Notes: generated by a model not told the origin, from the letters alone. Shown: positions 3,849 to 50,990, counted from the stretch's first letter. The stretch: DNA of 64,000 nt from an uncultured Gemmatimonadales bacterium (GCA_963711915.1 CAVQGA010000022.1:232943-296942), one strand, 5' to 3'. Numbers and translations are program-made.

Positions 3849-3952
3849 CGCGTCATCCTGAGCGGAGCGAAGGATCGGGTCGCTCATGGGAGTGAATCTC
3901 GGGGATCACTCACACCACCGACCCGATCCTTCGCTCCGCTCAGGATGACGCG
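3849..3952. repeat. palindromic intergenic repeat, variant subfamily: perfect 34-bp inverted repeat with 36-nt loop
   Basis: CGCGTCATCCTGAGCGGAGCGAAGGATCGGGTCG (3849-3882) is exactly complementary to 3919-3952. It fills the gap between convergent genes ending at 3844 and 3959. Confidence 0.9.
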
Positions 3953-3958
3953 CGCCCC

Positions 3959-4639
3959 CTACCCTCTCCCCCGCAGCACCTTGTCCAGCACCGGCCAGAC
4001 CGTCTCCGCCACGCGCCGCTGTCCCGCCGCCGTCGGGTGCATCATGTCGTCCTGATTGAGCGACGCTCGCCCCGCCACACCTTCCAGCAGGAACGGCACG
4101 AGGGCGAGCCGGTTGCGCTTGGCCAGCTCGGGATAGACCTGGCTGAATCGCCGGGCGTAGGTCAGCCCGTAGTTGGGGAGGGCCCGCATGCCGACGAGCA
4201 CGATTCGCGGGGGCGGCGTCTGGCGCCGCGCCCGGTCGATGATCGCCTGGATGTTGGCCTCCATCGAGTCCACGTCGAGCCCGCGGAGCCCGTCGTTCGC
4301 GCCGGTCTCGATCACGAGCACGGCGGCCGGCTGGCTCAGGATCCAGTCGATGCGGTGGAGCGCGCCCGACGAGGTCTCGCCGCTGACGCCGGCGTTGACG
4401 GCGGTGAAACGGAGCCCGGCCGAGTCCATCTTCTGCTGCAGCAGCGCGGGATAGGCCTCGGACGGGTCGACCCCAAGCCCCGCGGTGAGGCTCGTACCGA
4501 GAAAAACGACGCGGCCGCGTTCGCCGTCGGCCGGCACCGGCGGCGGACCGGCATCGGCCGGTGCCGGACCCCGATCGCAGGCGCCGATCGCGAGCAGCAC
4601 CAAACCGATCCACCCCCACCGGGGTATCATTGACACCAT
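3959..4639 (-). CDS. tesA: SGNH/GDSL arylesterase / lysophospholipase (TesA-like), lipoprotein signal
   Basis: FLGTSLTAG (GDS-like block), ETGANDGLRG and the DDMMHPT (DxxH) block. Lipobox LLAIGAC. Divergent from a ybbA/ybbP-like pair, as in E. coli. Alternative starts at 4630 (ATG) and 4663 (TTG). Confidence 0.8.
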   Translation of the reverse strand: MVSMIPRWGWIGLVLLAIGACDRGPAPADAGPPPVPADGERGRVVFLGTSLTAGLGVDPSEAYPALLQQKMDSAGLRFTAVNAGVSGETSSGALHRIDWILSQPAAVLVIETGANDGLRGLDVDSMEANIQAIIDRARRQTPPPRIVLVGMRALPNYGLTYARRFSQVYPELAKRNRLALVPFLLEGVAGRASLNQDDMMHPTAAGQRRVAETVWPVLDKVLRGRG

Positions 4640-5306
4640 GCTGCGTTGCGCCTCGCTGACCAAGATCTATCTCTCCGGCGGCCGCCGGCTCACGGTGTTG
4701 AAGGATATCACGTTCGCCGTGGAGCCGGGCGCGTTCGTCGCCATCGTGGGGCCCTCGGGCAGCGGCAAGACGACGCTGCTCGGCCTGCTCGCCGGACTCG
4801 ACCGCCCGACGGCGGGGACCGTGCATCTCGACGGCGAGGAGCTCGGCGCCCTGGACGAGGACCGCCGCGCGCGGCTCCGAGTGGAGAAGGTCGGCTTCGT
4901 GTTCCAGTCGTTCCAGCTCATTCCCACGCTCACCGCCCGCGAGAACGTGCAGGTCCCGCTCGAGCTCCGCGGCGAGGCCGCCGGCGCCCGTGCCACCGAG
5001 CTGCTCGAGCGCGTGGGCCTCGCCGACCGGGGGCACCACTATCCCGCGCAGCTCTCGGGCGGCGAGCAGCAGCGCGTCGCCCTCGCCCGCGCGTTCAGCA
5101 CCCGGCCGCGGGTGCTCTTCGCCGACGAGCCCACCGGCAACCTCGACGCCGGCACCGGCGCCACCATCATCGATCTGATGACGGAGCTCAACCGCGACCT
5201 CGGCACGACGCTGGTCCTGGTAACGCACGACCTCGATCTCGCGGCCCGCGCCCGGCGGACCATCCGCCTGGCCGACGGCGAGATCGTGGCCGATACCGCC
5301 GCGTGA
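4638..5306 (+). CDS. ybbA: ABC transporter ATP-binding protein (YbbA/LolD-like)
   Basis: Walker A GPSGSGKTT, signature LSGGEQQRVALARA, Walker B VLFADEPT. ATG at 4638. Confidence 0.9.
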   Translation: MLRCASLTKIYLSGGRRLTVLKDITFAVEPGAFVAIVGPSGSGKTTLLGLLAGLDRPTAGTVHLDGEELGALDEDRRARLRVEKVGFVFQSFQLIPTLTARENVQVPLELRGEAAGARATELLERVGLADRGHHYPAQLSGGEQQRVALARAFSTRPRVLFADEPTGNLDAGTGATIIDLMTELNRDLGTTLVLVTHDLDLAARARRTIRLADGEIVADTAA

Positions 5307-5345
5307 GCGGGCGCGCACGCGAACCGGGCGCCTGAGCGTCGGCGC

Positions 5346-7898
5346 ATGAGCGGGCCGGCGTTCGTGTTGCGGATGGCCGCGCGCGAGATCAGGGCGGCCC
5401 CACGGCGGCTGCTCCTCCTCACCGCGTCGATCGCGATCGGCGTCGCGGCGCTCGTCGCGATCGACTCCTTCGCCGACAACCTGCGCGACTCGGTCCGGGG
5501 CCAGGCCCGGGCCCTGCTCGGCGCCGACCTGGCGCTCTCCAGCCGGCGCCCGCTGCCGGGCGCCGCGGAGCGGGTGCTCGACACGCTCGCCGCGGCGGGC
5601 GGTCGCGTCGCCCGGCTCACGAGCTTCTCCGGAATGGCGTACGTGCCGCGCACCAACGGCACCCGGCTGGTGCAGGTGGCGGCCGTCGAGGCGGGCTACC
5701 CGTTCTATGGCGAGATCCGGACGGCGCCCGCCGCCGCGTGGTCCGAGCTGCCGCGGGGCGGCCGCGTCGTCGTGGATCCCTCGCTCCTCACGGCACTCCT
5801 CGCGCGCGTCGGCGACACGCTGGCCCTGGGCGAGACCCGCTTCGTCATCAGCGGCACGATCGTGAGCGCTCCGGGCAACGTCGGCGTCCGCGCCGCGTTC
5901 GGACCGCGGATCTACATCTTCGCCGGCAACCTCCCGGCGACGCGCCTCCTGGGCTTCGGCTCGCGCGCCGAGTACGAGGCATACGTGCGGCTGCCCTCGA
6001 CCGCGTCGCCTCAGACGCTCGCGGATCGCTTCCGGCCGCAGCTCGTGCCCGAGCGGGTGCGGGTCCGGACCGTAGCCGAAGACCAGGAGAATCTGAACGA
6101 CGCCCTCGGACGGCTCACCGGATACCTCGGGCTCGTCGCCCTGATCGCGCTGCTCCTGGGCGGGATCGGGGTGAGCAGTGGGGTGGTCGTCTTCATCCGG
6201 CAGCGGCTCGAGACCATCGCGGTGCTTCGCTGCCTCGGTGCGACCGCGGGCCGGGTACTCGCGGTGTACGCCACCGAAGCGGCGGCGATGGGGCTCACCG
6301 GCAGCGTCGCCGGGGCGGCGCTCGGTGTCGTCATGCAGCGGCTGCTGCCGGGCCTGCTGGCGGGATTGCTGCCGGTCGACGTCCGGACAGTGGTGTCGCC
6401 CCGGGCGCTGGCGCTCGGCGTGGGCATGGGGCTCTGGGTCGCGCTCGTCTTCGCGCTGCTGCCGCTGCTCGCGGTGCGGCGGGTGCCGCCGCTCGCGGCG
6501 CTGCGCCGCGAGGTCGAGCCCGAGCCGGAGCGCCGGCTGGACCCGTGGCGGCTCGCCGCCGTTGCCGCGCTCGGGGCGAGCACCGTCGCGCTGGCCGCGC
6601 TCCAGGTGGGAAGCTGGCGCCAGGGGGCCATCTTTTCGGGCGCCGTCGCCACCGCGCTGCTGGTGCTCTGGGGTGCCTCCTGGGCGATGGTCCGCGCCGT
6701 GCGCCGGTGGCTTCCGCGCAGGTGGCCCTATGTCTGGCGGCAGGGCGTCGCCAACCTGCAGCGGCCCTCGAATCAGACGGCCACCGTGGTGCTCGCCATC
6801 GGGTTCGGCGCGTTTCTGCTCGGGACCCTGTTCCTGGTGCAGTACAACCTGCTCCGGACGCTCCGGATCAGCGGCGGACCGGCGCGGCCCAACCTGGTGC
6901 TGTTCGACATTCAGCCCGACCAGCTCGCCACCGTCGACCGGGAGCTCGCCGCCGCGGGCTACCGCGCGGCCGGACCGGTCCCCATCGTCCCGATGCGCAT
7001 TCAGTCCATCAACGGCCGGCCGGTGACGCTCGCGCTGGCCGATAGCGCCCGGGACGAGGACGGCGGCCGCGGGCCGCGGAACGGCTGGGCGCTCCGCCGG
7101 GAATACCGCTCCACCTACCGCGACACGCTGGTGGCCTCCGAGCGGCTCGTGGGCGGGCGGTGGTGGGCGCGCGGCGGGGCGGCGGGCGCGGTCTCGGTCG
7201 AGCGCGACCTTGCGCGCGAGCTCGGCGTCGGCGTGGGCGACCGGATCGTGTGGGACGTGCAGGGCGTGCCGCTCGCCACCCGGGTGGCGAGCCTGCGGGA
7301 GGTGGACTGGGCGCGGTTCGAGCCCAACTTCTTCGTCGTGTTCGCGCCGGGGATGCTCGAGCGGGCGCCGCAGACCTACGTCACGCTCACGCGCATCGCC
7401 GGGCCGGCGGACCGGGGCACGTTTCAGCGGCGCATCGCCGAGCGGCTGCCCAACGTCACCAGCGTGGACCTGTCGTCGGTGCAGGAGACGCTCGAGCGCC
7501 TCATCGACCGGGTGACGCTCGCGATCCGGTTCATGGCGCTCTTCACCCTCGGCACCGGCACGCTGGTGCTGGTCGGAGCGCTCGCCACCAGCCGGTTTCA
7601 GCGGATCCGCGAGGGGGCGCTCCTCAGGACCCTCGGAGCCACGCGCGCCCAGCTGCTCCGGATCGTGCTGTCAGAGTACCTCTCGCTGGGAGCGCTGGCC
7701 GCGGCCGTGGCGCTGGGCCTGGCGGGCGTGGCCGGCTGGGCGCTCGCCCGTTTCGTGTTCGACGGGACGTTCGACCTGCCACTGCTCCCCTTCACCGGTC
7801 TCGGCGCCGCGGTCGTCGCGCTCACGGTGGCGGTGGGCCTCGCCAACAGCCGCGAGGTGCTGCGCCGGCCGCCGCTCGAGGTCCTGCGGTCGGAATGA
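5346..7898 (+). CDS. ybbP: ABC transporter permease with duplicated FtsX-type domains (YbbP-like)
   Basis: 850 aa with two blocks of TM helices separated by large extracytoplasmic domains. It immediately follows the ATPase, matching the E. coli tesA/ybbA/ybbP arrangement. Confidence 0.8.
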   Translation: MSGPAFVLRMAAREIRAAPRRLLLLTASIAIGVAALVAIDSFADNLRDSVRGQARALLGADLALSSRRPLPGAAERVLDTLAAAGGRVARLTSFSGMAYVPRTNGTRLVQVAAVEAGYPFYGEIRTAPAAAWSELPRGGRVVVDPSLLTALLARVGDTLALGETRFVISGTIVSAPGNVGVRAAFGPRIYIFAGNLPATRLLGFGSRAEYEAYVRLPSTASPQTLADRFRPQLVPERVRVRTVAEDQENLNDALGRLTGYLGLVALIALLLGGIGVSSGVVVFIRQRLETIAVLRCLGATAGRVLAVYATEAAAMGLTGSVAGAALGVVMQRLLPGLLAGLLPVDVRTVVSPRALALGVGMGLWVALVFALLPLLAVRRVPPLAALRREVEPEPERRLDPWRLAAVAALGASTVALAALQVGSWRQGAIFSGAVATALLVLWGASWAMVRAVRRWLPRRWPYVWRQGVANLQRPSNQTATVVLAIGFGAFLLGTLFLVQYNLLRTLRISGGPARPNLVLFDIQPDQLATVDRELAAAGYRAAGPVPIVPMRIQSINGRPVTLALADSARDEDGGRGPRNGWALRREYRSTYRDTLVASERLVGGRWWARGGAAGAVSVERDLARELGVGVGDRIVWDVQGVPLATRVASLREVDWARFEPNFFVVFAPGMLERAPQTYVTLTRIAGPADRGTFQRRIAERLPNVTSVDLSSVQETLERLIDRVTLAIRFMALFTLGTGTLVLVGALATSRFQRIREGALLRTLGATRAQLLRIVLSEYLSLGALAAAVALGLAGVAGWALARFVFDGTFDLPLLPFTGLGAAVVALTVAVGLANSREVLRRPPLEVLRSE

Positions 7899-7918
7899 GC
7901 GGCGGCTATACTTCCCCG

Positions 7919-8075
7919 CACCGTCATCCCGAGCCCGCACCGTCATCCCGGGCCCGCATCGTCATCCCGAGCGGAGCGAGGGACCTTGCCCGTCTGCTCC
8001 GGACCCGTAGCGTAGGTCCGATACGGCGAGCAGATCCCTCGCTCCGGTCGGGATGACGGCCGCTCCGCTCGGGAG
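7919..8075. repeat. palindromic intergenic repeat cluster (three 19-nt phased GTCATCC left arms plus a complex hairpin)
   Basis: GTCATCCCG occurs at 7923, 7942 and 7961. The arm GTCATCCCGAGCGGAGCGAGGGA pairs with TCCCTCGCTCCGGTCGGGATGAC (ending 8057) with one mismatch. Inner pairings are TCTGCTC/GAGCAGA and CGGACC/GGTCCG. Confidence 0.85.
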
Positions 8076-8140
8076 ACGGCATCCTCGGCACGCCTCGGCC
8101 GGAGCACACCTCAACCACTTCACGCGAGGGTTTCCACCCC

Positions 8141-9043
8141 ATGCTCGCGATCGATCTGACCGGCAAGCGCGCCCTGGTGGCCGGCGTCTCCGACGACGGC
8201 GGCTTCGGCTTCGCCATCGCCAAGTCGCTGGCGGAGGCCGGAGCGACGATCTGCCTCGGGAGCTGGCCGCCCGCCCTGGGCATCTTCACCAAGTTGCTCG
8301 AGCGCGGGAAGATGGACGACTCGATGCGGCTGAGCGACGGACGGAAGCTGGAGTTCGAGCGGATCTATCCGCTCGACGCGGCGTTCGACGTGCTCGACGA
8401 CGCGCCGGCGGAGGTTCGGGAGAACAAGCGCTACAAGGAGCAGGGCGACTTCAGCGTGCAGGGAATGGCCGACCGCATCCGCGGCGATTTCGGCGACGCC
8501 GCGCTCGACATCGTCGTGCACAGCCTGGCCAACGGCCCCGAGGTGAAGTCGCCGCTGGTGGACACCAGCCGGCGCGGCTACCTCGCGGCCGTCAGCGTGA
8601 GCGCCTACAGCAACATCAGCCTCGTGAGCCGGCTGGCGCCGCTGATGCGGCCCGGGGGCGCGTTTCTCTCGCTCACCTACATGGCCGGCGAGCGCGTGAT
8701 CCCGGGGTACGGTGGCGGCATGTCGTCGGCCAAGGCCGCGCTGGAGGCCGACACGCGCACCCTGGCGTACGAGGCCGGCCGACGCTGGGGCGTCCGCATC
8801 AACGCGATCTCCGCCGGCCCCTGGGCCTCGCGCGCGGCCTCGGCCATCGGGTTCATCGATACGATGATCAAGTACGCCGCTGCGAACTCGCCCGTGCCGC
8901 GGGCCATCGACGCCACCGAAGTCGGGAACACCGCCGCCTTTCTCGCCAGCCCGCTCGCGTCGGGCATCACCGGCAGCGTGGTCTACGTGGACAACGGGTT
9001 TCACGCGATGGGCATGGCGGTGCCGGCGCCGGGCGCAGGCTGA
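8141..9043 (+). CDS. fabI: enoyl-[acyl-carrier-protein] reductase, NADH-dependent, long form with internal insertion
   Basis: [21 protein letters not shown]..., [25 protein letters not shown] (Y-x6-K region) and INAISAGP. The ~60-aa insertion after the first beta-alpha unit resembles plant/chlamydial-type FabI. Confidence 0.85.
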
Positions 9044-9047
9044 GCGG

Positions 9048-11465
9048 TCATGTTTCGCCGTCGCCCGTCACCCGCTTCACCATCGCCGTCAGCGCGCTCA
9101 GCTCGAACGGTTTCTCCAGCACCGGTCTCGGCGTGCGCTGGATGAATTCCCGCGCCATCGGGGAGGCCACATCGCCAGTCGCGATGATGAGCCGGGCGAA
9201 GAGGGCCGGCCGCCGTTGGGCCAGCCAGTCGTGCACGTCGAACCCGCTGCGACCCGGCATGCGGAGATCGCTCATCACGAGCGCGTAGTCCGGCGCGTCC
9301 GGCCGCTCCAGCATCCGCAGCGCGGCGGCACCGTCTTCGGCCTCGTCCACGTCCCACCCCGTGCGCTCGAAATAGCGTCTCAGCGCCACGCGAACCGAGC
9401 GCTCGTCGTCGATGATGAGCGCCCGGTGGCGTCCGTTCGAGCCCGCGCCGGCGGTGTCAGCCGGGGCCGGCCGCGCACCGGCCGGGCGGCTCTCGACGGC
9501 GACCGCCCCGGGGATGACCACGGTGAACCGCGCGCCGGCGATCTCACTGCCGCCGCTCTCGGCCTGCAGCGTTCCGCCGTGGCGCTGCACGATCCCGAGC
9601 GAGACGGCGAGCCCGAGCCCGGTGCCCTGCCCCTCGGCGCGCGTGGTGAAAAACGGCTCGAAGATCCGCGGCAGGACGTCAGGCGGAATACCCGGTCCGG
9701 TGTCCTCCACCACGATCCTCCACCCGCCCCCATCCGACTGGCCGCGCACATGCACCCGGCCGCCCGGCCCCGCCGCCTGCGCCCCGTTCACGATCAGATT
9801 CGTCAGCACCTGCTCCAGCCCCAGCCGGTCCACCGGCAGCATCGGCGCGGCGGCATCGGCGTCCACCGCCAGCTCCACGCCCATCGTCTTCAGGATGGGA
9901 TCCACCCCACGCCGGGTGCTCGCCGCCAGCTCGGCCAGGGCCGTGGGCTCGGGACGGCGCTCGCGGCCCCGCGCGAAGGACAGGAGGTCCTGCACGATCG
10001 ACCGGCACCGGCGGGCCTGATTCCCGATGAGCTCGAGCGCCTCCCGGTCGGCCGCCGGCACCGAGGGCCCTTGCTGCAGGTCATCCGCGAGATGCAGCAC
10101 CGCGGTGAGCGGATTGTTCAGCTCGTGGGCCACGCCGGACGCGAGCCGGCCGATCGCCGACAGCCGTTCGTGCTGGACCAACTGCGCCTGCGTCCGCTGG
10201 AGCTGCCGGTATGCCCGTCGGAGATCGGCCTCGTCGGCCCGGACGCGGGCCGCCATCCGGTCGAAGGCACCGGCCAGCGCGGCCACCTCGTCGCCCCGGA
10301 CCAGGGCCACCGGCTCGACCGCGAGGTCGCCGTTGGCCATCTGCACGGCGGCCGCCCGGAGCCGCTCGATGGGCGCGACGATGCTCCGCGCGAGCATCGC
10401 CGCGAGGCCGAGGGCGATGGCCAGCGCGCCACCGACCACGATCGCCGCCGGCTTGGCCGCGGCCACCAGCTCGCGGCTGTAGTCGCGGAACGGCGAGACC
10501 GCCACGAGCACCACGCCGTCCCCGTCGGGCAGCACCGCGGGGCGGTACTGGTACGCGACGACCTTGTGCTCCCCGTCCCGGCTCGCGAACCACCCGCGGT
10601 CGTTGCGCTGGATCGGCTGGAAATCCCTCCGCCCGTCGGCGAACAGCACCAGGCCGCGGCCGTGCCCCGCGACGACGAAGCCGTTCGAGCGCCGGACGAT
10701 GAATCCCTCGGTGTGGGGGCCGAACTGGCTGAGCGGATTCTGGAGCTCGAGCTGGCCGGAGACGCCGTCGAGCGCCTGCAGCATCGCCTCGGCCAGCGTC
10801 TGCTCCCGCAGCCGCTGCCACTGGGTCAGGCCGTAGAGGAACACCGGCACCGCGACCCCCACGGCCACGGCGAGCGTGATCGACAGCACCTTGCCGTAGA
10901 GCGGCTGAATGAGCGGCGACTCCGGCGCGGCCGGCGGCGTCCGCGGCAGGCCGAGGCGTTGCACCGCCCGCTCGGCCATGAGATAGGCCGCCACGGCGAA
11001 CAGGCCACCGAGCACCGGTCCCTGCAGCGTGATCTTGGCGAACTCGAGCGTGGGGAGATGGGCGAAGTGATCGATCTGGATCGCGCCCAGGAGATAGCCC
11101 ACGCTGCTCGTGGTGATGACCAGGAGGGCCACCAGCATCGGGTACGTGGCGAGGGCGCTCCCGATGTCGGGGTCCCCGGCGGCGAGCCGGCGCTGGAGCC
11201 GGCGGAAGGCGAGGTGCGGGAGCAGCACCGCGCCGGTCCACCCGACGGCGGGCACCTCCCAGCCATAGCAGATGAAAATCCACCGCAGCTGGCTGGCGTT
11301 GACGAGCCACCAGAGGCGCGAGAACGAGATGCCGATGACCCACCAGCACAGGATGGAGGTCAGCCACAGCTGCAGGGCCAGCAGCCGGGCCGCGTCCAGC
11401 GGGACGCGCGAGGAGCGAGGCGGAGCGACGTCGTTCGCCGCCCGGTCGGTGCCGGTGAGTGTCAC
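9048..11465 (-). CDS. hybrid sensor histidine kinase (multi-TM sensor, HAMP, HisKA, HATPase_c, C-terminal receiver)
   Basis: H-box ASGVAHELNNPLT, G-boxes DTGPGIP and GTGLGLAV, receiver ALIIDDE...MSDLRMPG. The GTG start at 11465 is the first plausible start in frame. The rest of the 1477-aa ORF is antisense read-through. Confidence 0.85.
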   Translation of the reverse strand: MTLTGTDRAANDVAPPRSSRVPLDAARLLALQLWLTSILCWWVIGISFSRLWWLVNASQLRWIFICYGWEVPAVGWTGAVLLPHLAFRRLQRRLAAGDPDIGSALATYPMLVALLVITTSSVGYLLGAIQIDHFAHLPTLEFAKITLQGPVLGGLFAVAAYLMAERAVQRLGLPRTPPAAPESPLIQPLYGKVLSITLAVAVGVAVPVFLYGLTQWQRLREQTLAEAMLQALDGVSGQLELQNPLSQFGPHTEGFIVRRSNGFVVAGHGRGLVLFADGRRDFQPIQRNDRGWFASRDGEHKVVAYQYRPAVLPDGDGVVLVAVSPFRDYSRELVAAAKPAAIVVGGALAIALGLAAMLARSIVAPIERLRAAAVQMANGDLAVEPVALVRGDEVAALAGAFDRMAARVRADEADLRRAYRQLQRTQAQLVQHERLSAIGRLASGVAHELNNPLTAVLHLADDLQQGPSVPAADREALELIGNQARRCRSIVQDLLSFARGRERRPEPTALAELAASTRRGVDPILKTMGVELAVDADAAAPMLPVDRLGLEQVLTNLIVNGAQAAGPGGRVHVRGQSDGGGWRIVVEDTGPGIPPDVLPRIFEPFFTTRAEGQGTGLGLAVSLGIVQRHGGTLQAESGGSEIAGARFTVVIPGAVAVESRPAGARPAPADTAGAGSNGRHRALIIDDERSVRVALRRYFERTGWDVDEAEDGAAALRMLERPDAPDYALVMSDLRMPGRSGFDVHDWLAQRRPALFARLIIATGDVASPMAREFIQRTPRPVLEKPFELSALTAMVKRVTGDGET

Positions 11466-11537
11466 GTGTTCAGTTCGCTCTTCAGAAGGCCCGGCGAATG
11501 GGGGGGGTGCCGCGCGGCAGGATCCCGAGCTCCGGCA

Positions 11538-11543
11538 TATAAT
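11538..11543 (+). promoter_or_regulatory. consensus TATAAT hexamer in divergent promoter gap (possible -10 for the enoyl-CoA hydratase operon)
   Basis: CATATAATAC is the only AT-rich patch in the 130-bp gap between genes starting at 11465 (-) and 11596 (+). No good -35 was found. Confidence 0.3.
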
Positions 11544-11595
11544 ACACGCCTGTCCGATCCCGCTGGTAGCGCGCAGCCACCCTGAAGAGCCGACC

Positions 11596-12384
11596 ATGCC
11601 CGACGAGTTGCTGTCCCACGCCGACCGGGCCGTCCAGTTCCTCACCATCAACCGGCCGGTCCGCCGCAATGCGCTCACGCCCGAGCTGGCGCGCGGGATC
11701 GCCGAGGCTCTCGACGGCGTGGCGGAGTCGGGCCAGGCGGAGCTGGTCGTGCTGCGCGGCGCCGCGGGCCACTTCTCGGCCGGGCTCGATCTGCACTGGC
11801 TGCGGGGGCTGGGGGACGCGCCCACGGTGGCGGCGCTGCAGCACGGCCTGGCCGACTTCCAGGCCGCGGTGCTCGCGGTCGTGCGCTGCCCGGTGCCCGT
11901 GCTGGCGGTCGTCGAAGGCACCGCCGCCGGGTACGGCCTGGACCTCGCGCTGGCGTGCGACCTCCGGCTCGCGTCCACCACCGCCGCCTTCACCTCGGCG
12001 TTCGCCCGGATGGGACTGGTTCCGGACGGCGGCTCGACCTTCACCCTGCCGAGGCTGGTGGGCATCGGCCCCGCGCTGCGCCTGCTGCTGGCCGGCGAGA
12101 CCATCGGCGCCGCCCGCGCCCAGGCGATCGGTCTGGTGGACGAGGTCGTGGACGTCGCCCGGATCGACTCCGAGGTGGCGGCCCTGGCCGGCCGCCTCAC
12201 GGCCGGGGCCACTTCGAGCGTCCGGGCCATCAAGCGCCTGGTACGGGCGCAGGAGGTCGGAGCCCTGGAGCAGGTGCTCGCCGCCGAAGGGGCGGCCCAG
12301 ATCCAGGCGCTCCAGAGTCCCGAGTTCCGCCAACGGCTGGAGGCGTTCGCCTCGCGCCTCGCCGGCCGCGCCGAGGGTGGGTGA
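11596..12384 (+). CDS. enoyl-CoA hydratase/isomerase (crotonase fold)
   Basis: LTINRPVRRNAL, FSAGLDL and VEGTAAGYGLDLALACDLR motifs. Confidence 0.85.
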   Translation: MPDELLSHADRAVQFLTINRPVRRNALTPELARGIAEALDGVAESGQAELVVLRGAAGHFSAGLDLHWLRGLGDAPTVAALQHGLADFQAAVLAVVRCPVPVLAVVEGTAAGYGLDLALACDLRLASTTAAFTSAFARMGLVPDGGSTFTLPRLVGIGPALRLLLAGETIGAARAQAIGLVDEVVDVARIDSEVAALAGRLTAGATSSVRAIKRLVRAQEVGALEQVLAAEGAAQIQALQSPEFRQRLEAFASRLAGRAEGG

Positions 12385-13199
12385 GCGGGCCGGCCGCGGG
12401 CATCTTCCGGCCCGACCTGCTCGCCGGCAAGGTGGCGCTGGTGACGGGCGGCGGGACCGGCATCGGTCTCGGCATCGCCTCCTGTCTCGCGGGCGCGGGG
12501 GCCGCCGTGGCCATCGCGAGCCGGAAGCCCGAGCATCTCGAGCCCGCGGCGGCCGGGCTTCGCCAGCGCGGCGCCCGCGTGAGCACGGTGGAGGCCAACG
12601 TGCGGGAGCCCGAGTCCGTGGGGCGCATGGTGGAGCGCGTCGTCGCCGAGCATGGCCGGCTCGACATCCTGGTCAACAACGCCGCGGGCAACTTCTACGC
12701 GCCGTCGGCCACGCTCTCGCCCAATGCCTGGCGCGCGGTGGTCGAGACCGATCTCTACGGCAGCTTCTACTGCGCCCAAGCGGCCTACCCGGCCATGAAG
12801 TCGCGGGGCGGCGGCCGCATCGTCTCGATCTCGATGACGCTGCACTACCGCGGGTGGCCGCTCATGGCGCACGCGACGGCGGCCAAGGCCGGCGTGGATG
12901 CGCTGACCCGGACACTGGCGCTCGAGTGGGCGGCCGATCACATCACGGTAAACGCGGTAGCACCCGGCCCGATCCCGACCGAAGGGGTACAGCGGGCGTT
13001 CACGCCGCCCGACGCACGCGCTCCCGACCTGTTCCGGATGGATGAGTACGCCACACGCGCCATTCCGCTCGGACGGTGGGGCACGCCGGAGGATGTGGGC
13101 CAGCTGGTGACCTTCCTCGCCGGCCCCGCCGGCGAATGGATCACCGGTGCGATCTTCGTGGTGGACGGCGGCTCGTGGCTCGCTGGCGGGAGGCCCTGA
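12381..13199 (+). CDS. short-chain dehydrogenase, 2,4-dienoyl-CoA reductase-like
   Basis: GKVALVTGGGTGIG, LVNNAAGNF and HATAAKAGVDALTR motifs. The GTG start overlaps the upstream stop (GTGA). Confidence 0.8.
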   Translation: MSGPAAGIFRPDLLAGKVALVTGGGTGIGLGIASCLAGAGAAVAIASRKPEHLEPAAAGLRQRGARVSTVEANVREPESVGRMVERVVAEHGRLDILVNNAAGNFYAPSATLSPNAWRAVVETDLYGSFYCAQAAYPAMKSRGGGRIVSISMTLHYRGWPLMAHATAAKAGVDALTRTLALEWAADHITVNAVAPGPIPTEGVQRAFTPPDARAPDLFRMDEYATRAIPLGRWGTPEDVGQLVTFLAGPAGEWITGAIFVVDGGSWLAGGRP

Positions 13200-13898
13200 A
13201 TGTTCCTCGGACACTACGGCGTGGCGCTGGCGCTCAAGCGGGCGGAGCCCAAGCTCTCGCTCGGCACCCTGTTCGTGGCCACCCAGGCCGCCGACCTGCT
13301 GTGGGGGATCTTCCTGCTGCTGGGCTGGGAGCACGTGCGCATCTTGCCCGACGACAACCCCCTGCTCACGCTGCAGTTCTACGACTACCCGATCTCCCAC
13401 AGCCTGGTGGCGGCGGTGGCCTGGGGGCTCGCCGCCGCCACGCTGTACTACTCCTGGCCGACGCGGGACACGACCCGCCATTGGCAGGCGGCCGCGCTGG
13501 TCGGCGCGGCCGTGGCCTCACACTGGCTGCTGGATCTGGTGGTGCACATCCCCGACCTGCCGCTCGCCGGCAATGATTCGCCCAAGGTCGGTCTCGGGCT
13601 GTGGCGGCATTTCGGCGTGAGCGTGGCGCTCGAGCTCGTGGTCCTCGCCGCCGGGACCGCCATCTACGTGGCCCGGCGCTCACGGCGGCACCCGGTCCGC
13701 CCGATCCGGCTGGGCGTCGTCCTGCTCGTGCTGCTGGCGACCTACGCCGCCTCGCTGCTCGGGCCACCGCCGGAGCGCGTCGCCCTCATCGGCGTGGGCG
13801 ACATCGTCTTCATGCTCGGGATGGGTGCGCTCGCCGCGTGGGCCGATAGAGCCGCGTCGCCGGCCGAGCTCGCGCGTGGCGGACCGGCCGCGAGGTGA
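13200..13898 (+). CDS. polytopic membrane protein with conserved His motifs (possible membrane-bound hydrolase)
   Basis: MFLGHYG..., ISHSLV and ASHWLLDLVVH motifs with about 6 hydrophobic helices. The ATG directly abuts the upstream stop (TGAATG). Confidence 0.6.
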   Translation: MFLGHYGVALALKRAEPKLSLGTLFVATQAADLLWGIFLLLGWEHVRILPDDNPLLTLQFYDYPISHSLVAAVAWGLAAATLYYSWPTRDTTRHWQAAALVGAAVASHWLLDLVVHIPDLPLAGNDSPKVGLGLWRHFGVSVALELVVLAAGTAIYVARRSRRHPVRPIRLGVVLLVLLATYAASLLGPPPERVALIGVGDIVFMLGMGALAAWADRAASPAELARGGPAAR

Positions 13899-14272
13899 GC
13901 CGCATGGACCGCCTGTTCTTCACGCTGGGGGCCTGGTCCGCGTTCCTCGCGGTGGCAGCGGGAGCGTTCGGCGCGCACGCGCTCCGGGCGCGGCTTTCTC
14001 CTGAGCTGCTGGGAGTGTTCGAGACCGGCGCGCGTTACCAGATGTACCACGCTCTCGCCCTGCTGGCGGTCGGCTGGGCCGTGGCACAGTGGCCCGGCGC
14101 GCTGCCGCGGGCGGCGGGGTGGCTGTTCGTGCTGGGCACGGTGCTGTTCTCGGGCAGCCTCTACGCCCTCGCACTCAGCGGCGCGCGCTGGCTCGGCGCC
14201 ATCACGCCGCTCGGCGGGGTCGCGTTGCTGGCGGGGTGGGTCTGTCTCGCGCTCTCGGCGCAGCGGGGATAG
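13895..14272 (+). CDS. DUF423 family membrane protein (YgdD-like)
   Basis: AFGAHAL...ARYQMYHALALL...GSLYALAL pattern over four TM helices. The GTG start overlaps the upstream stop; an alternative ATG is at 13904. Confidence 0.75.
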   Translation: MSRMDRLFFTLGAWSAFLAVAAGAFGAHALRARLSPELLGVFETGARYQMYHALALLAVGWAVAQWPGALPRAAGWLFVLGTVLFSGSLYALALSGARWLGAITPLGGVALLAGWVCLALSAQRG

Positions 14273-14307
14273 GGATGCACGTGGAGTGGAACGCGCTGGG
14301 GAACACC

Positions 14308-14570
14308 GCGCGTCATCCTGACCACGTTCGCTGCGCTCAGGGTAAATTCCCCGAAGGATCGGCTGGGTGGTGCGTGTGACGCTCGTGCCTCACCCTCATG
14401 CCCAAGCCGATCCTTCGCGATCATGTGTCATCCCGAGCGCAGCGAGGGATCTTGCCGGGGAATGGTTCGAGCCCGGCCCGGCAAGATCCCTCGCTGCGCT
14501 CGGGATGACCGTGCCCTTCTCGGGATGACCGTGCCCTCCTCAGAATGACGTCGCCCTTCTCGGGATGACA
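14308..14570. repeat. palindromic intergenic repeat cluster containing the canonical 32-bp perfect hairpin plus four 20-nt phased right arms
   Basis: GTCATCCCGAGCGCAGCGAGGGATCTTGCCGG (14427-14458) is perfectly complementary to 14478-14509. GATGAC-type arms end at 14509, 14529, 14549 and 14569. An upstream sub-element has GAAGGATCGGCT (14353-14364) paired with AGCCGATCCTTC (14405-14416). Confidence 0.9.
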
Positions 14571-14572
14571 AG

Positions 14573-15316
14573 ATGACAGCCGCGGCCTACCGCCATCTCC
14601 TGTCCGAGCTCGACGCCTGGTTCGCGCGCGGCGCGGCCGCCGCCGGCGGGCTGGTGCCGTGCCGTGGCGGCTGCAGCGCCTGCTGCCACGGCCCGTTCGA
14701 CATCTCGGTGGCCGACGCGGAGCTGATCAGGGAGGCGCTCGACGCGCTGCCCACACCGGCGCAAGCGGAGGTTGCGCGACGGGCCCGCGTCCTGCTGGAC
14801 CAGATGCGCGCCCTCGAGCCCGGGTGGGCCCCGCCCTACGCCGTGGACGCGCTCGGAGAGGACCGCTTCGATCGCCTCACGGACGCCCTCGCCCGCGAGC
14901 CCTGTCCCCTGCTGGACGACACCGGCCGCTGCCGCATCTACGCCAGCCGGCCGCTGGTCTGCCGCCTGATCGGCCTCGGAATGCGCACGCCAACCGGCCG
15001 CCTCGTCGAAAACGCCTGCCCGATCCAGGATCGCTTCCCAGGCTACGCCGAGCTCGCGCCGGCGCCGTTCGATCTGGAGGCGTTCGAGGAAGCCGAGGCC
15101 GGGTGCTTGCAGGCGGCGGCGATGCGCCGGTTCGGAACGGCCGAGCGGCACGGGTTCGAGACCACGATCGCCGCGACGATCGTGGAACGCACACCTGTCA
15201 TCTCGAGCGGCAGCGGCATCCCGAACGCGGGGACGTCATCCCGAGCGCAGCGAGGGATCTTGCCGGGAAATGGTTCGAGCTCGACCCAGCAAGATCCCTC
15301 ACTGCGCTCGGGATGA
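14573..15316 (+). CDS. YkgJ/UPF0153 family zinc/iron-sulfur cluster protein (CxxxCxxCC)
   Basis: CRGGCSACCHGPF motif plus a second Cys cluster CPLLDDTGRCRIYASRPLVCR. The last ~40 codons (...VISSGSGIPNAGTSSRAQRGILPGNG...SLRSG) and the stop codon lie inside the repeat element at 15197-15352. Confidence 0.7.
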   Translation: MTAAAYRHLLSELDAWFARGAAAAGGLVPCRGGCSACCHGPFDISVADAELIREALDALPTPAQAEVARRARVLLDQMRALEPGWAPPYAVDALGEDRFDRLTDALAREPCPLLDDTGRCRIYASRPLVCRLIGLGMRTPTGRLVENACPIQDRFPGYAELAPAPFDLEAFEEAEAGCLQAAAMRRFGTAERHGFETTIAATIVERTPVISSGSGIPNAGTSSRAQRGILPGNGSSSTQQDPSLRSG

Positions 15317-15352
15317 CGTTGCCTTCTCGGGAGGATAGGGTGGCAGGATGAC
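15197..15352. repeat. palindromic intergenic repeat (canonical family)
   Basis: The left arm at 15235-15266 is identical to the canonical 32-mer. The right arm ends at 15317 and has a few mismatches. Outer GTCATCT (15197) and GGATGAC (15352) arms flank it. Confidence 0.9.
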
Positions 15353-15381
15353 AAACCGCCTGCACGCCACCCTCCAGGTCC

Positions 15382-38750: not shown

Positions 38751-39991
38751 TGCGCTCCGTCCTCTTCGTCGACCCGCCCGCCTTCTGCACCACCGTCGAA
38801 GGCCTCGTGGCGCCGGCCCTCCGGACGCGGCCCGTCGCGGTGGCGCCGCCGGGGGCCGACCGCGCCACCATCCTCGCGCTCTCGGCGGAGGCGCGGCTGG
38901 CGGGAATCGAGCGGGGCATGCCGGTGCGGCAGGCGCTCAAGCGCTGTCCCGATCTCGTGCTGCTGCCGCCCAATCCGCAGCTCTACGCCCGGGCCTCGCG
39001 CGCGCTCCACGAGGTGCTCCGGATCTACGCGCCGGTCATCGAGCCTCACGGCTACGGCCACGCCTTCCTCGACCTCACCGGCACCGGGCGGCTCTTCGGC
39101 CCGGCGGTGGACGTGGCCGCGCGAGTGCAGCGCGAGATCCGCGAGCGGCTCCGGCTGCCGGTCTCGGTGGGTGTGGCCGCCAACAAGCTGGTGAGCCAGG
39201 CCGCCACGACGGTGGTCAAGCCCGAGCCGCTGCTCGAGGTGCCGGGTGGCTCGGAGGCGAGCTTCCTCGCGCCCCATCCGCTCGACGTGCTGCCCGAGCT
39301 GCATCCCCGGATGCGGCAGCGGCTCGACGACTATCAGCTCGACCTCATCGGGGAGGTCGCCGCCATCACCGAGAGCGCGCTGTGCGCGGTCTTCGGCGGC
39401 GCGGGGCGCATGCTCCGGGCGCAGGCGCGCGGCATCGATCCGCGTCCGGTGCTGCCGCCCGAGCGGCAGGCCGAGTTCCACGTCGCCCACGCGCTGGCCA
39501 CCGACACCAACGACCTCGGCGTGCTGCACCCGCTGCTCCGGGTGCTCGGCGAGCGGCTCGGCCGCCGGCTCCGCCGGCGCGGGCTCGTGGCGCGGCGGCT
39601 CCGGGTCGCGCTCACCTACGCCGACCACACCGCCGCCACCCGCGCCGTGGCGCTCCGCGGGGCGGCGCTCGACGCCGAGCTGTGGGACGCGGCGCGCCGC
39701 GCGTTCACCCAGGCCAACGCCCGGCGGCTCGCGGTCCGGAGGGTATCGCTCACGCTGGACCGGCTGGAGGAAGCGGAGGGGCAACTGGATCTGTGGGGGA
39801 TGGTCATGGCGGGAGGGGCGGAGACGGGAACAGGCAACGAGCTGCCCGGCGCGGAGTCCGGCTCCGGCCTTGGCGCGGGATTCCCCGCGCGCTCCCGCCC
39901 CCGCGCCCTGCAGCAGGCCCTCGACCGCATCACCACCCGCTACGGCGCGCGCGCGGTCGCCAGCGCGGCCGTGCACGCGCTCACCAGGTGA
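38747..39991 (+). CDS. Y-family DNA polymerase-fold protein lacking catalytic acidic residues (ImuB-like)
   Basis: VLFVDPPAFCTTVE (versus the D-x-D of active DinB/Dpo4) and YGHAFLDLTG (versus SIDEAYLD). VGVAANKLVSQAA is conserved. QLDLWG at 39782-39799 resembles a beta-clamp-binding motif. GTG 38747 / ATG 38750 overlap the upstream stop. Confidence 0.75.
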   Translation: MMRSVLFVDPPAFCTTVEGLVAPALRTRPVAVAPPGADRATILALSAEARLAGIERGMPVRQALKRCPDLVLLPPNPQLYARASRALHEVLRIYAPVIEPHGYGHAFLDLTGTGRLFGPAVDVAARVQREIRERLRLPVSVGVAANKLVSQAATTVVKPEPLLEVPGGSEASFLAPHPLDVLPELHPRMRQRLDDYQLDLIGEVAAITESALCAVFGGAGRMLRAQARGIDPRPVLPPERQAEFHVAHALATDTNDLGVLHPLLRVLGERLGRRLRRRGLVARRLRVALTYADHTAATRAVALRGAALDAELWDAARRAFTQANARRLAVRRVSLTLDRLEEAEGQLDLWGMVMAGGAETGTGNELPGAESGSGLGAGFPARSRPRALQQALDRITTRYGARAVASAAVHALTR

Positions 39992-40045
39992 CGATCACTT
40001 TGCCGAAGGCCTCGTTCGCCTCGCGCGCCCGCTGGCCTCCGAAAT
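39953..40045. repeat. copy A of a ~100-bp imperfect direct repeat (3' end of the ImuB-like gene plus a 22-codon fragment of the qor 3' end on the opposite strand)
   Basis: GCGGTCGCCAGCGCGG...ACGCGCTCACCAGGTGAC...TTGCCGAAGG.CTCGTTCGCCTCG is shared with 40746-40855. The reverse strand reads MDFGGQRAREANEAFGKVIVTW*, versus the true Qor C terminus ...HRALEANETFGKVVVTW*. Confidence 0.8.
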
Positions 40046-40745: not shown

Positions 40746-40855
40746 GCGGTCGCCAGCGCGGTCGCGCCCGCTCACGGTGTACGCGCTCTCACCAGGTGAC
40801 CACCACCTTGCCGAAGGTCTCGTTCGCCTCGAGCGCGCGGTGGGCCTCGACCAGC
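40746..40855. repeat. copy B of the ~100-bp imperfect direct repeat (true qor 3' end plus a relic of the ImuB-like C terminus)
   Basis: Same shared blocks as copy A, with a ~13-15-nt extra segment. The + strand reads ...AAVASAVAPAHGVRALTR*, echoing the ImuB-like C terminus ...ARAVASAAVHALTR*. Confidence 0.8.
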
Positions 40856-42142: not shown

Positions 42143-42217
42143 TGCCTTGTCCTCCCGTCCTGGGTTTCGCGCCTTCCTGCAGACCCGCAATCTAGCCCGA
42201 CCGATATCCTTAGTCGT

Positions 42218-42237: not shown

Positions 42238-42306
42238 CCCGCCCCGCTTTCTGACCTCGCCCTGACACCCCGCGCCCTACGTTCCCATCCAGACACCGGA
42301 GGAACC

Positions 42307-42420: not shown

Positions 42421-42506
42421 GCCCCGAATCGCTCATCGGTCTGGGCGTGGCGATCGCCGTGCTCGGATACCTGCTGTACACGCTGCTGCGCCCGGAACGG
42501 TTCTGA
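42417..42506 (+). CDS. kdpF: K+-transporting ATPase subunit F
   Basis: MSPESLIGLGVAIAVLGYLLYTLLRPERF has the KdpF hallmark YLxYxLLRPExF. It ends 1 nt before the kdpA ATG. Confidence 0.8.
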   Translation: MSPESLIGLGVAIAVLGYLLYTLLRPERF

Positions 42507-42507
42507 C

Positions 42508-44223: not shown

Positions 44224-44247
44224 TGAGCGTTCGTGCTGGACGCCGCC

Positions 44248-44467
44248 GTCATCTCGAGCGGGGCCGCGGTCATCTCGAGCGGAGCCGCCGTCATCCCGGC
44301 TCCGGCGAGGGAGCCCGCCGCTGTCATCCCGAGCGCAGCGAGGGATCTGCTCCTCGGGGGTTCGAGCTCGGCCCGGCAAGATCCCTCGCTGCGCTCGGGA
44401 TGACGGCGGCTGCGCCCGGGATGACGGCGGCTGCGCTCGGGATGACAGGGCCTGCCCTCGGGATGAC
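44248..44467. repeat. nested palindromic repeat cluster between kdpA and kdpB (4 left + 4 right arms)
   Basis: GTCATC arms start at 44248, 44269, 44290 and 44323. GATGAC arms end at 44404, 44425, 44446 and 44467 (21-nt phasing). The central arms are near-identical to the canonical element at 14427-14509. Confidence 0.9.
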
Positions 44468-44511
44468 GACGCGTCCGCGCCGGCGCATCAATGCCTCGGA
44501 GCCCTCCTGAC

Positions 44512-46581: not shown

Positions 46582-46584
46582 GCC

Positions 46585-47184
46585 ATGTCTTCCATGCTGC
46601 GTACCCATCTCCGTCCGGCGATCGTGCTCACACTCCTGCTCTGCGCGCTCACCGGCCTGGCCTATCCCGCCCTGGTCACCGGGCTCGCGCAGGCGCTGTT
46701 CCCGTGGCAGGCCCACGGCAGCCTGGTCTCGGCGAAGGGCCGGGTGGTCGGCAGCGCGCTCATCGGGCAGCCGTTCACGCGGGCCGAGTACTTCCGCCCG
46801 CGCCCTTCCGCCGCCGGCCAGGGGTACGACGCCGCAGCGTCGGGCGGCACCAACAAGGGCCCGACGGACCGGAAGCTGGCCGACACTCTCGTTGCAGGCG
46901 CGGTCGCGGCCGCTATGGCGGAGGATGGCGCCGTCCGCGGCCATGTCCCCTCCGACATGGCGACCTCATCCGCCTCCGGCCTCGACCCGCACATCAGCCC
47001 CGCCAATGCCGAGCTCCAGGTCGCCCGCGTGGCGCGGGCGCGAGGCGTTTCGGTGGATTCCGTCAGAGCGGTGCTCCGGCGCCACACCGAAGGACGGCAG
47101 TTCGGCTTCTTCGGTGAGCCGCGCGTCAACGTGCTGTTGCTCAACCTGGCGCTCGACAGTCTGGTACCCCGGGACTCGCCCTGA
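46585..47184 (+). CDS. kdpC: K+-transporting ATPase subunit C
   Basis: Single N-terminal TM helix. SGLDPHISPANAELQVARVA motif. The stop codon lies within the first arm of the next repeat. Confidence 0.9.
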   Translation: MSSMLRTHLRPAIVLTLLLCALTGLAYPALVTGLAQALFPWQAHGSLVSAKGRVVGSALIGQPFTRAEYFRPRPSAAGQGYDAAASGGTNKGPTDRKLADTLVAGAVAAAMAEDGAVRGHVPSDMATSSASGLDPHISPANAELQVARVARARGVSVDSVRAVLRRHTEGRQFGFFGEPRVNVLLLNLALDSLVPRDSP

Positions 47185-47284
47185 GCGAAGCGAAGGGGCA
47201 TGCCGCCGGTGATGGTCCCCTTCGCGTCGCTCTTGCGCGACTCCCGGCGAGTATGTTTGAGGTCATCATGACGCCCTTCGTCCC
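47175..47284. repeat. palindromic repeat, divergent member, between kdpC and kdpD
   Basis: GAGCGAAGCGAAGGGG (47183-47198) pairs with CCCCTTCGCGTCGCTC (47217-47232) with one mismatch. A GGTCATCATGACG motif follows downstream. Confidence 0.7.
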
Positions 47285-50005: not shown

Positions 50006-50673
50006 TCGAGGACGAGCCGCAGATGCGGCGCTTCCTCCGGACGGCGCTGTCGTCCAACGACTACCGACTGGTCGAGGCGGGGACGGCCAAGGAAGGGCTG
50101 GCGCACGCGGCTGCCCGGAATCCCGACGTCATCCTGCTCGACCTGGGCCTGCCCGACCGCGACGGCCTCGAGGTGGCGAAGGAGCTCCGCGAGTGGAGCA
50201 CCACGCCGATCATCGTGCTGTCGGCGCGCGGCCGCGAGGAGGACAAGGTGGCGGCTCTCGACCTCGGCGCCGACGACTACCTCACCAAGCCGTTCGGCGT
50301 GGACGAGCTGCTCGCCCGGATCCGGGTGGCGCTCCGGCACGCGGCGCGCCCGGCGGGCGCCGCGCCCGAGCCGATCTTCCAGGCAGGCGAGCTCAAGGTG
50401 GACCTGGCCGCGCGGCGCGTGTGGCGGGCGGGGGAAGAGGTGCGCCTGACGCCCACCGAGTACAAGCTGCTGGGCGTGCTGGTGCGGAACGCCGGCAAGG
50501 TCTTGACCCACCGGCACCTGCTCAAGGAGGTGTGGGGCATCAACTACGTGAACCAGTCGCACTACGTGCGGGTGTATCTGGCGCAGCTCCGGCAGAAGCT
50601 CGAGGCCGATCCGGCGCGGCCGAGGCTGCTGGTGACGGAGCCGGGGGTGGGGTATCGACTGAAGGACGAGTGA
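49975..50673 (+). CDS. kdpE: response regulator KdpE (OmpR family)
   Basis: LIEDEPQMRR...LLDLGLPDRDG receiver domain. Winged-helix LTPTEYKLLGVL...GVGYRL. Overlaps kdpD by 31 nt. Confidence 0.9.
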   Translation: MDGAAPLVLLIEDEPQMRRFLRTALSSNDYRLVEAGTAKEGLAHAAARNPDVILLDLGLPDRDGLEVAKELREWSTTPIIVLSARGREEDKVAALDLGADDYLTKPFGVDELLARIRVALRHAARPAGAAPEPIFQAGELKVDLAARRVWRAGEEVRLTPTEYKLLGVLVRNAGKVLTHRHLLKEVWGINYVNQSHYVRVYLAQLRQKLEADPARPRLLVTEPGVGYRLKDE

Positions 50674-50698
50674 CGGTCGGAGGGGGGGATGGAACGGC

Positions 50699-50990
50699 GC
50701 GCGTCATCCCGATCGAAGCGAAGGATGACCGCCGGGGCGAGCCACCATCAGCCTTTGTCATCGTCGGTCTTGCCCGGATCCCTCCACCGCCGGCTGTTGG
50801 GAGCTGTCCGCGGCCCCGGAGCCCGCATCGCATTGCCCTTCCTCCGCGCACTCGCCAGCGTGGTCCTGCTCCAGGCGCCGCCGGCCCGGACGGCCGCTAC
50901 CGTCTCGCCGGCCGCCGGGCCCGCACCAGGTCACCGTCCGCTTTCTCGGCTATGCGTCCCACGATGACCGGCTCCGCCGGAGATGACCAG
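50699..50990. repeat. degenerate remnants of the GTCATCC/GGATGAC repeat family
   Basis: GCGTCATCCCGATCGAAGCGAAGGATGAC at 50701-50729, TTGTCATCG near 50755, CTTGCCCGGATCCCTC near 50769, and CACGATGACC...GAGATGACC near 50960-50990. Confidence 0.45.

Follow-up and report, generated by a model that had tools for sequence, protein, structure and literature searches.

Palindromic intergenic repeats of a Gemmatimonadales genome as likely Ssn-related motifs, hairpin targets of a small GIY-YIG nuclease

A family of palindromic intergenic repeats with GTCATCC/GGATGAC arms is dispersed over a 64-kb stretch of DNA from an uncultured Gemmatimonadales bacterium (phylum Gemmatimonadota, GC ~70%; GCA_963711915.1, CAVQGA010000022.1:232943-296942). 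This whole stretch is called the window below, and coordinates without a further label refer to it. We consider it highly likely that these repeats are Ssn-related motifs (SRMs) resembling the neisserial NTS repeat, that is, hairpin targets of the small GIY-YIG nuclease Ssn. The functional unit is an oriented arm of 25-29 nt, itself a hairpin, and not the long palindrome; a first-pass annotation of this DNA had instead taken the 32-nt arm of a long stem-loop as the unit. We describe the anatomy of the motif, the covariation within it, its linkage to ssn genes, its breadth, and its turnover at orthologous sites. The system and its likely logic were already published in 2025, so that the novelty lies in the sequence version of the motif and not in a new category of element.

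The Ssn system was characterized by Chenal et al. (Nat Commun 2025;16:2388; PMC11893778) in Neisseria meningitidis, whose SsnA is a 94-aa single-domain GIY-YIG protein (CDD cd10448). SsnA binds the NTS repeat, CGTCATTCCCGCGMAVGCGGGAATCYRG, solely as single-stranded DNA and on one strand only, does not bind RNA, and cuts a few nucleotides upstream of the NTS hairpin (PMC11893778). Cutting is governed by the three bases ahead of the palindrome, and no base matters more for binding than the C that follows it (PMC11893778). Insertions in the loop are tolerated, as was shown experimentally, and cleavage also occurs at an engineered split site, when a first and a second half are annealed to each other (PMC11893778). 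In Neisseria, the system modulates natural transformation (PMC11893778). Across phyla, Ssn homologues are flanked by SRMs, nearby in 71% and on both sides in 42%, and the authors called this motif-gene-motif layout IS-like (insertion sequence-like), as a hypothesis only (PMC11893778). An SRM is there an imperfect palindrome of 20-50 nt that forms a hairpin in single-stranded DNA (PMC11893778).

The window arm agrees with this description in its layout. Like the NTS, it has CGTCAT, then an imperfect palindrome, then a C. It reads GTC, a first stem strand ATCCY-GA-GC, the loop GNA, a second stem strand GC-GA-RGGAT, and C, with the pairs A4-T24, T5-A23, C6-G22, C7-G21, Y8-R20, G11-C17 and C12-G16, the mismatches G9.A19 and A10.G18, the loop G13-N14-A15, and C25 after the stem. 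CGTCAT stands ahead of the stem in all intact window arms, which corresponds to the unpaired (H)GTCWY flank that orients SRMs just upstream of the palindrome. The palindrome is predicted to form a hairpin, and position 25 is C in the window arms with at most two mismatches (n = 12), except in that at 50703.

The fold is supported by a set of 81 unique arms lying beside GIY-YIG genes that were picked by their protein only. The 5' flank GTCA is nearly invariant in this set, each base being present in 79-81 of the 81 arms, and C25 is present in 68; the conserved positions of the window motif are thus those reported as critical, namely the three nucleotides upstream and the C after the palindrome. 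Four stem pairs covary, 6-22 (CG 35, TA 22, GC 4), 8-20, 11-17 (GC 61, AT 9) and 5-23, and partner-shuffle controls reach the observed value in only 0-1 of 500 trials. Both G.A mismatches and the G and A of the loop are conserved, and N14 is free. The T..A version of the arm in the window (at 3852) and the C..G version (at 14427) differ by one compensated pair. These compensatory changes support the hairpin fold of the arm, and DNA folding places this hairpin in the same register as that of the NTS. The covariation of positions 8 and 20 was at first thought to be a mere GC bias; this view was set aside, and the pair kept as real, because other pairs covary too, including the change from G-C to A-T at 11-17.

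Unlike the NTS, with its 8-bp perfect stem, the window arm has two conserved G.A mismatches and a GNA tri-loop. Its centre, GCGNAGC, in which G and A are conserved around a free N, presumably resembles the d(GCGNAGC) DNA mini-hairpins; the literature on these concerns a structural motif and not a genetic element, and we infer their relevance to Ssn recognition. A recognition sequence so distinct and near-invariant, with an unusual G.A/GNA hairpin, suggests that the enzymes have a specificity for single-stranded DNA that is new.

The second line of evidence is the linkage of the motif to ssn genes in other genomes. Among 120 loci selected by the motif, four hold an open reading frame (ORF) of ~95 aa with GIY-YIG signatures inside or against the inverted pair, and a hidden Markov model (HMM) added a fifth locus with an ssn homologue, L110 (total 5/120). 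Four of the five homologues touch or adjoin the motif or its palindromes. A tblastn search with the gonococcal SsnA orthologue recovered 5 of the 120 loci, at E-values of 1e-11 to 9e-21. The reverse test used 80 metagenome loci selected solely for encoding a GIY-YIG relative. With a search span of 200 nt, a left arm was found upstream in 30/80, a right arm downstream in 32/80, and both in 18/80; a motif copy lies within 300 nt in 50/80, and most of the other 30 have a variant of it whose loop contains an insertion.

The motif-ssn-motif arrangement is exemplified by L162, L073, L071 and L110. L162 is a clean 374-bp unit with the window-type C..G arm exact on both sides, the right arm giving the stop codon of the gene. 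The motif-flanked proteins have 92-100 aa and a single domain (PF01541 only), and are 47-48% identical to the 94-aa SsnA orthologue of N. gonorrhoeae (pairwise E 3e-26); tblastn against 7.3 Gb links the Ssn homologues at E 2e-16, and the published threshold for Ssn homology is E < 1e-10 (PMC11893778). They are thus homologues of SsnA with the same size of ~94 aa and the same single GIY-YIG domain. Solved UPF0213 proteins are more distant from them (E 4e-8), and NCBIfam has no model for them. Many intergenic copies, often as inverted pairs around genes, and a motif on one or both sides of a gene for a ~94-aa single-domain GIY-YIG protein are common to the window-type motif and to the Ssn/NTS system. 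At the gonococcal locus, the SsnA orthologue lies amid nine canonical NTS in inverted pairs. The arrangement differs in that ssn stands there between pairs, while the window-type motif usually encloses ssn within one inverted pair.

Three observations touch on these genes. The 2.17-Mb Neisseria gonorrhoeae records NZ_CP119140.1 (L201) and NZ_CP119142.1 are filed as plasmids in PLSDB and are evidently chromosomes; they supplied the gonococcal SsnA orthologue compared here. The Planktothrix agardhii plasmid NZ_LR882964.1 (L202, 1498-1782) has an ssn homologue and its repeats inside a defence locus, with an MmeI-type restriction-modification gene on one side and DISARM drmA on the other. A GIY-YIG gene of another Gemmatimonadales stretch (L015, ~2700-2970) was rejected as a partner of the repeats, being of the UPF0213/YhbQ type and not Ssn.

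The breadth of the motif was assessed by a scan for the exact 25-mer GTCATCCYGAGCGNAGCGARGGATC with one genome per species, which returned at least 120 stretches from genomes labelled as at least 14 phyla. Among the matches listed, carriers are labelled Acidobacteriota, Chloroflexota, Gemmatimonadota, Planctomycetota, Verrucomicrobiota, Bacteroidota, Bacillota, Nitrospirota, Omnitrophota, Patescibacteria/Saccharibacteria, Bdellovibrionota, Synergistota, Alpha- and Gammaproteobacteria, and others; most are metagenome-assembled genomes, and the layout is constant everywhere, a 25-mer, a variable interior, and the reverse-complement 25-mer. Cultured isolates with the motif include Hymenobacter glaciei, Pedobacter sp. 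AK013, Mucilaginibacter sp. SG564 and Reyranella sp. CPCC 100927. The exact 25-mer also occurs in 76 stretches of IMG/VR viral contigs (L209-L284). Since no ssn homologue was found in the 708 kb of these motif-bearing viral stretches, a phage vehicle is not supported.

Taken with the Neisseria work, these results suggest how the repeats may act. Each arm is one motif that, when single-stranded, would be bound by Ssn and cut a few nucleotides upstream; single-stranded CGCGTCATCCCGAGCGCAGCGAGGGATCTTG is a putative Ssn substrate, for which a cut is expected 5' of GTCAT on the forward strand only. Two inverted motifs bracketing a variable interior provide each strand with one motif at its 5' edge. 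[quoted passage not shown] A cognate Ssn encoded elsewhere in the genome may cut these sites in incoming, replicating or repair single-stranded DNA. Such cutting would affect recombination, and the same activity could underlie the spread of the repeats.

Several observations weigh against this assignment. HMM and tblastn searches found no GIY-YIG gene of the Ssn kind in the window, nor in ~88 kb of other Gemmatimonadota sequence examined, and a homology search with a high-GC Ssn returned nothing named Gemmatimonadota among the best 120. Linkage to ssn is thus a property of the motif family elsewhere; the high copy number and the intergenic clustering around genes are seen in the window itself. 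The published SRM search pattern, HGTCWYN(0-2)YYVSBRHN(0-5)WNVSBRGN(0-2)RNCYNB (PMC11893778), matches nothing in the window, where ~1 hit would arise by chance, and nothing in the 80 Ssn loci, although it recovers all nine NTS of the gonococcal locus. The window arms need 2-4 substitutions to fit it, which they miss because of their G.A mismatches, and the pattern is a search heuristic rather than a definition. The predicted energy of the single-arm hairpin is weak (-3.5 kcal/mol, z -0.3), in a model that leaves GNA loops and sheared G.A pairs uncredited. Were an element fully single-stranded, pairing between its arms (-48.6 kcal/mol) would be in competition with the arm hairpins, and duplex DNA is not cut by Ssn (PMC11893778). 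Finally, the role of Ssn outside Neisseria is not known even to the authors who described it (PMC11893778).

The repeats were inventoried by a fuzzy search. The 25-nt arm GTCATCCYGAGCGNAGCGARGGATC forms five intact inverted pairs in the window (3852-3949, 7961-8057, 14427-14509, 15235-15317 and 44323-44404), besides which one copy is disrupted (14312-14426), one is degenerate (from 47175), and one arm stands alone (50703-50729). The 64 kb thus hold 8 loci, 12 good arms and ~17 copies of the first half of the arm, all intergenic or at ORF ends. The features are as follows; an inverted pair has no strand.

3852-3949, two SRM-like arms of the T..A version in inverted orientation, GTCATCCTGAGCGGAGCGAAGGATC read on either strand, 0 mismatches in both arms, 48-nt interior; after a class-V aminotransferase gene.
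7923-7960, plus strand, two tandem first-half copies, GTCATCCCGAGC and GTCATCCCGGGC, period 19, outside the left arm (fuzzy search).
7961-8057, inverted arm pair with its own interior, 1 mismatch per arm; degenerate stutter to ~8077; after an FtsX/MacB permease gene.
14312-14426, disrupted older element, in one subfamily with 3852-3949 (interior 72% alike); left arm interrupted, right arm truncated where the next element starts.
14427-14509, canonical element with a loop of 17 nt between perfect arms of 33 nt that both open with the 25-nt GTCATCCCGAGCGCAGCGAGGGATC; DNA fold -48.6 kcal/mol, z -12.9.
14510-14569, minus strand, three tandem first-half copies, period 20, outside the right arm, ending 3 nt ahead of the start codon of a ykgJ-like gene.
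15197-15234, plus strand, two degenerate first-half copies within the read-through tail of the ykgJ-like ORF.
15235-15317, element that matches 14427-14515 at 92% identity, interior too; the ORF takes its stop from the GGATGAC here, and another GGATGAC lies at 15346-15352; gap convergent with ctaG.
44248-44322, plus strand, three first-half or degenerate copies, period 21, left of the next element; between kdpA and kdpB.
44323-44404, inverted arm pair, 25-mer with 0 mismatches; interior related to those of 14427 and 15235.
44405-44467, minus strand, three first-half copies, period 21, mirroring the left array; the whole of 44240-44475 folds as a single nested hairpin.
47175-47242, degenerate pair of a second subfamily, ..CCCTGAGCGAAGCGAAGGGGC ... 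CCCCTTCGCGTCGCTC.., 5 mismatches, no GTCAT; overlaps the kdpC stop in the kdpC-kdpD gap.
50703-50729, plus strand, lone arm GTCATCCCGATCGAAGCGAAGGATG with 2 mismatches; the AC directly after it lets it close on itself; after a kdpE-like response regulator gene.

This inventory bears out the first-pass annotation as to the reality of the palindromic intergenic repeats, the starts and ends of its subrepeats, and the tandem 19-21-nt arrays beside the central hairpins. The canonical unit had been given as a 32-nt arm with a 19-nt loop and is in fact made of 33-nt perfect arms with a 17-nt loop. The 32-mer GTCATCCCGAGCGCAGCGAGGGATCTTGCCGG is exact at 14427(+), 14478(-), 15235(+) and 44373(-), and occurs with 2 mismatches at 15286(-) and with 3 at 7961(+). 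None of these six occurrences at up to 3 mismatches is expected by chance, and shuffled sequence has zero matches. In the recurrence first described at 44323-44404, the left arm departs from the 32-mer after 27 nt. The GTCATCC heptamer is enriched 3.4-fold (36 observed, 10.7 expected in the window). Nothing repeat-like extends to 47284 or 50990, where the last two loci had been thought to end. As for the giant nested palindromes, one is formed by 44240-44475 (-112 kcal/mol, z -12, as DNA) and another in part by 7915-8085, while 14308-14570 is asymmetric. A tRNA-like reading of the T-loop-like GGTTCGAGCCC found in three interiors was rejected, since one subfamily simply has this interior in common.

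That complete units were copied in this genome follows from the 92% identity of 14427-14515 and 15235-15323 including the interior, and from a second interior shared between 3868-3934 and 14352-14418. The second subfamily, GTCACCCTGAGCGAAGCGAAGGGGC, with GTCACCC...AGGGGC arms, is degenerate in the window at 47175-47242 and intact at L207 566-632. The latter comes from another genome of the phylum, where it fills the counterpart of the window's DUF423|ykgJ gap. Among related Gemmatimonadota, the orthologous DUF423|ykgJ|ctaG gaps are empty, or hold a 32-nt remnant, an intact second-subfamily element or a lone first half. These gaps show turnover of the repeats, though no clean insertion junction. 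In a hairpin-free relative (L204, 1490-1666 and 2405-2530), the orthologous gaps hold simple runs of (GGCGGGCA)n and (GGCGAGAG)n.

The first-half copies consist of the first 12-15 nt of the arm, repeated in tandem with a 19-21-nt period on the outer sides of the pairs. They start at 7923 and 7942, at 15197 and 15215, and at 44248, 44269 and 44290; on the minus side there are three in 14518-14569 and three in 44414-44467. In all sequence examined, 66 of 397 arms have such copies on the outer side and 10 have them on the inner, and their spacing peaks at 19-21 nt and its multiples. Outer (5') arrays are also found at ~1830-1900 of the Planktothrix plasmid (L202), at L029 and at L099. Such arrays are a difference from the published account of SRMs, the main text of which does not use the word 'tandem' (PMC11893778). 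Because a first half paired with a second half is cleavable, the arrays could offer several cutting registers. They are a natural counterpart of the engineered split site.

A stronger version of the mechanism, which seems to us possible but doubtful, makes the motif-ssn-motif unit of ~375-400 bp an autonomous mobile element that moves via single-stranded DNA with its 95-aa GIY-YIG protein and host repair, the gene-less palindromes being its MITEs. The first-half arrays would then be footprints of repeated cutting and repair, or alternative registers pairing with a single second half. If so, the unit would be among the smallest known mobile elements, across most bacterial phyla.

The positions of the repeats relative to genes bear on the alternative explanations. 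By Pfam assignment, the loci lie after a class-V aminotransferase gene, after an FtsX/MacB permease gene, between DUF423 and a ykgJ-like CxxCxxCC gene, between this gene and the convergent ctaG, between kdpA and kdpB inside the operon, between kdpC and kdpD, and after a kdpE-like regulator gene. The ykgJ-like gene is therefore bordered by repeats on both sides. The seven loci first reported all follow a plus-strand gene and none lies in a divergent gap, as had been noted; on a rough gene map, however, divergent gaps make up only ~9/33, and their avoidance by seven loci has P ~0.1, which is not significant. The kdpA-kdpB gap (44224-44490), inside the kdpFABC operon, holds a repeat cluster of 220 nt whose hairpin is predicted at -112 kcal/mol.

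The placement of seven out of seven loci after a gene 3' end, together with the great stability of the long hairpins, would be expected if the repeats acted at the RNA level as terminators or mRNA 3'-end stabilizers, as some repetitive extragenic palindromic (REP) elements do. We judge such a role improbable. No right arm is followed by a T-run, and a terminator scan of 3500-16000 found none at its four SRM loci; the kdpA-kdpB cluster sits inside an operon in which termination would be harmful; the position bias in the window is not significant; and Neisseria SsnA does not bind RNA (PMC11893778). The elements are moreover palindromic, and thus have no strand relation to the gene. Rfam, to which the first-pass annotation had pointed, has no family that matches at gathering thresholds, and permissive E-values yield only generic microRNA-hairpin models on the long stem. 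Secondary effects of the repeats on mRNA are possible.

Still less probable are ordinary MITEs, internally deleted copies of an IS with a DDE transposase that are mobilized in trans via 25-bp terminal inverted repeats. Terminal inverted repeats around variable interiors, duplication of whole copies in the genome, and presence or absence at orthologous sites all fit such elements, and bacterial MITEs (Correia/NEMIS, Nezha) are likewise small, non-coding and intergenic, with occasional read-through from ORFs. In contrast to these, the window repeats have no parent DDE IS and no transposase in the window, and reading the sequence directly revealed no direct target-site duplication beside any window copy. 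Their ends are base-conserved across phyla and form an internally covarying hairpin, which is not expected of DDE transposon ends, and the sole gene that they recurrently enclose is that of a 95-aa nuclease, ssn. A 2024 survey of conserved prokaryotic MITEs makes no mention of GIY-YIG or of the motif, and a full-text literature search for 13-mers found only an unrelated primer.

The first-pass annotation had likened the family to REP elements and bacterial interspersed mosaic elements (BIMEs), which are kept by a REP-associated tyrosine transposase (RAYT, IS200/IS605-like) that recognizes a hairpin with a conserved 5' tetranucleotide. The likeness is considerable and was drawn by the Ssn authors too (PMC11893778). 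GC-rich intergenic imperfect palindromes, inverted pairs, mosaic clusters in gene-end gaps, a conserved unpaired 5' sequence, recognition of 5'-flanked hairpins as single-stranded DNA, and an enzyme gene flanked by its own repeats are features of both. The enzymes differ: RAYT is an HUH tyrosine transposase with a covalent intermediate, Ssn a GIY-YIG hydrolytic nuclease. It is the latter gene that lies within the inverted pair, and the conserved 5' flank is GTCAT and not GTAG. A tblastn search with E. coli RayT finds nothing in the window, in line with the reported lack of a RAYT or transposase gene there, and its best E-value in the 120 motif loci is 0.015, a moderate-to-weak negative given the one distant query; the SsnA orthologue finds five of the same loci at 1e-11 to 9e-21. 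One layout across at least 14 phyla is also not what a lineage-specific REP family would be expected to show. We therefore regard RAYT-kept REP/BIME elements as very improbable. The description as a dispersed intergenic family stands, while the class to which it belongs has a name, SRM (NTS-like), and its partner is GIY-YIG and not RAYT. The possibility, raised at the outset, of a match to an already described family is thus borne out for the class and not for the sequence version, which lies off the published consensus pattern.

Most carriers are metagenome-assembled genomes, yet the idea that the repeats come from faulty assembly or binning, or from chance in GC-rich DNA, is refuted by the zero matches in shuffles, by the cultured isolates, and by an independent ENA contig (ERZ25039569 contig_63787, a sibling contig) that has the first cluster (gap 1) without a single base difference, along with the same four arms, exact, from the two clusters. 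Confinement to the window, which the first-pass annotation had also named as a refuting outcome, is contradicted by the taxonomic range of the exact 25-mer.

Another family for comparison is the neisserial dRS3, short palindromes (ATTCCC-N8-GGGAAT) that form inverted pairs ~80-155 nt apart in intergenic clusters; about half of them are NTS. The dRS3 sequence is a different one and is Neisseria-specific, whereas the window motif spans many phyla.

The repeats also leave traces in protein annotation. Translation of the ykgJ-like ORF (14573-15316) gives a repeat-coded end, ...TSSRAQRGILPGNGSSSTQQDPSLRSG, with the tail SSRAQRGILPGNGSSSTQQDPSLRSG, adding ~40 residues; a public 247-aa protein (P0001) retains this tail, and some orthologues have ~205 aa. 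The named database relatives of the window protein are Gemmatimonadota. The suspicion that the translated repeats pollute databases was thus well founded. The motif class is very widespread, absent from Rfam and missed by the published SRM pattern, and it causes false C-terminal extensions and spurious ORFs (SSRAQRGIL, VIPSAARDL, HPERSEGS, DPSLRSG); with a model for it, many annotations of soil bacteria and metagenomes could be cleaned up. On ENA contig L203 (1264-1527, minus strand), an 87-aa gene without a Pfam match has been called over a repeat cluster.

Two further repeats of the window are of other kinds. At 59011-59094, within a long ORF, there are four tandem copies of a 21-nt unit (67-88% identity), unrelated to the hairpin repeats. 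The 72-nt stretches 39971-40042 and 40779-40850 are 82% identical and lie at the 3' ends of two adjacent minus-strand ORFs, one encoding a zinc-type alcohol dehydrogenase, which are probably tandem paralogues.

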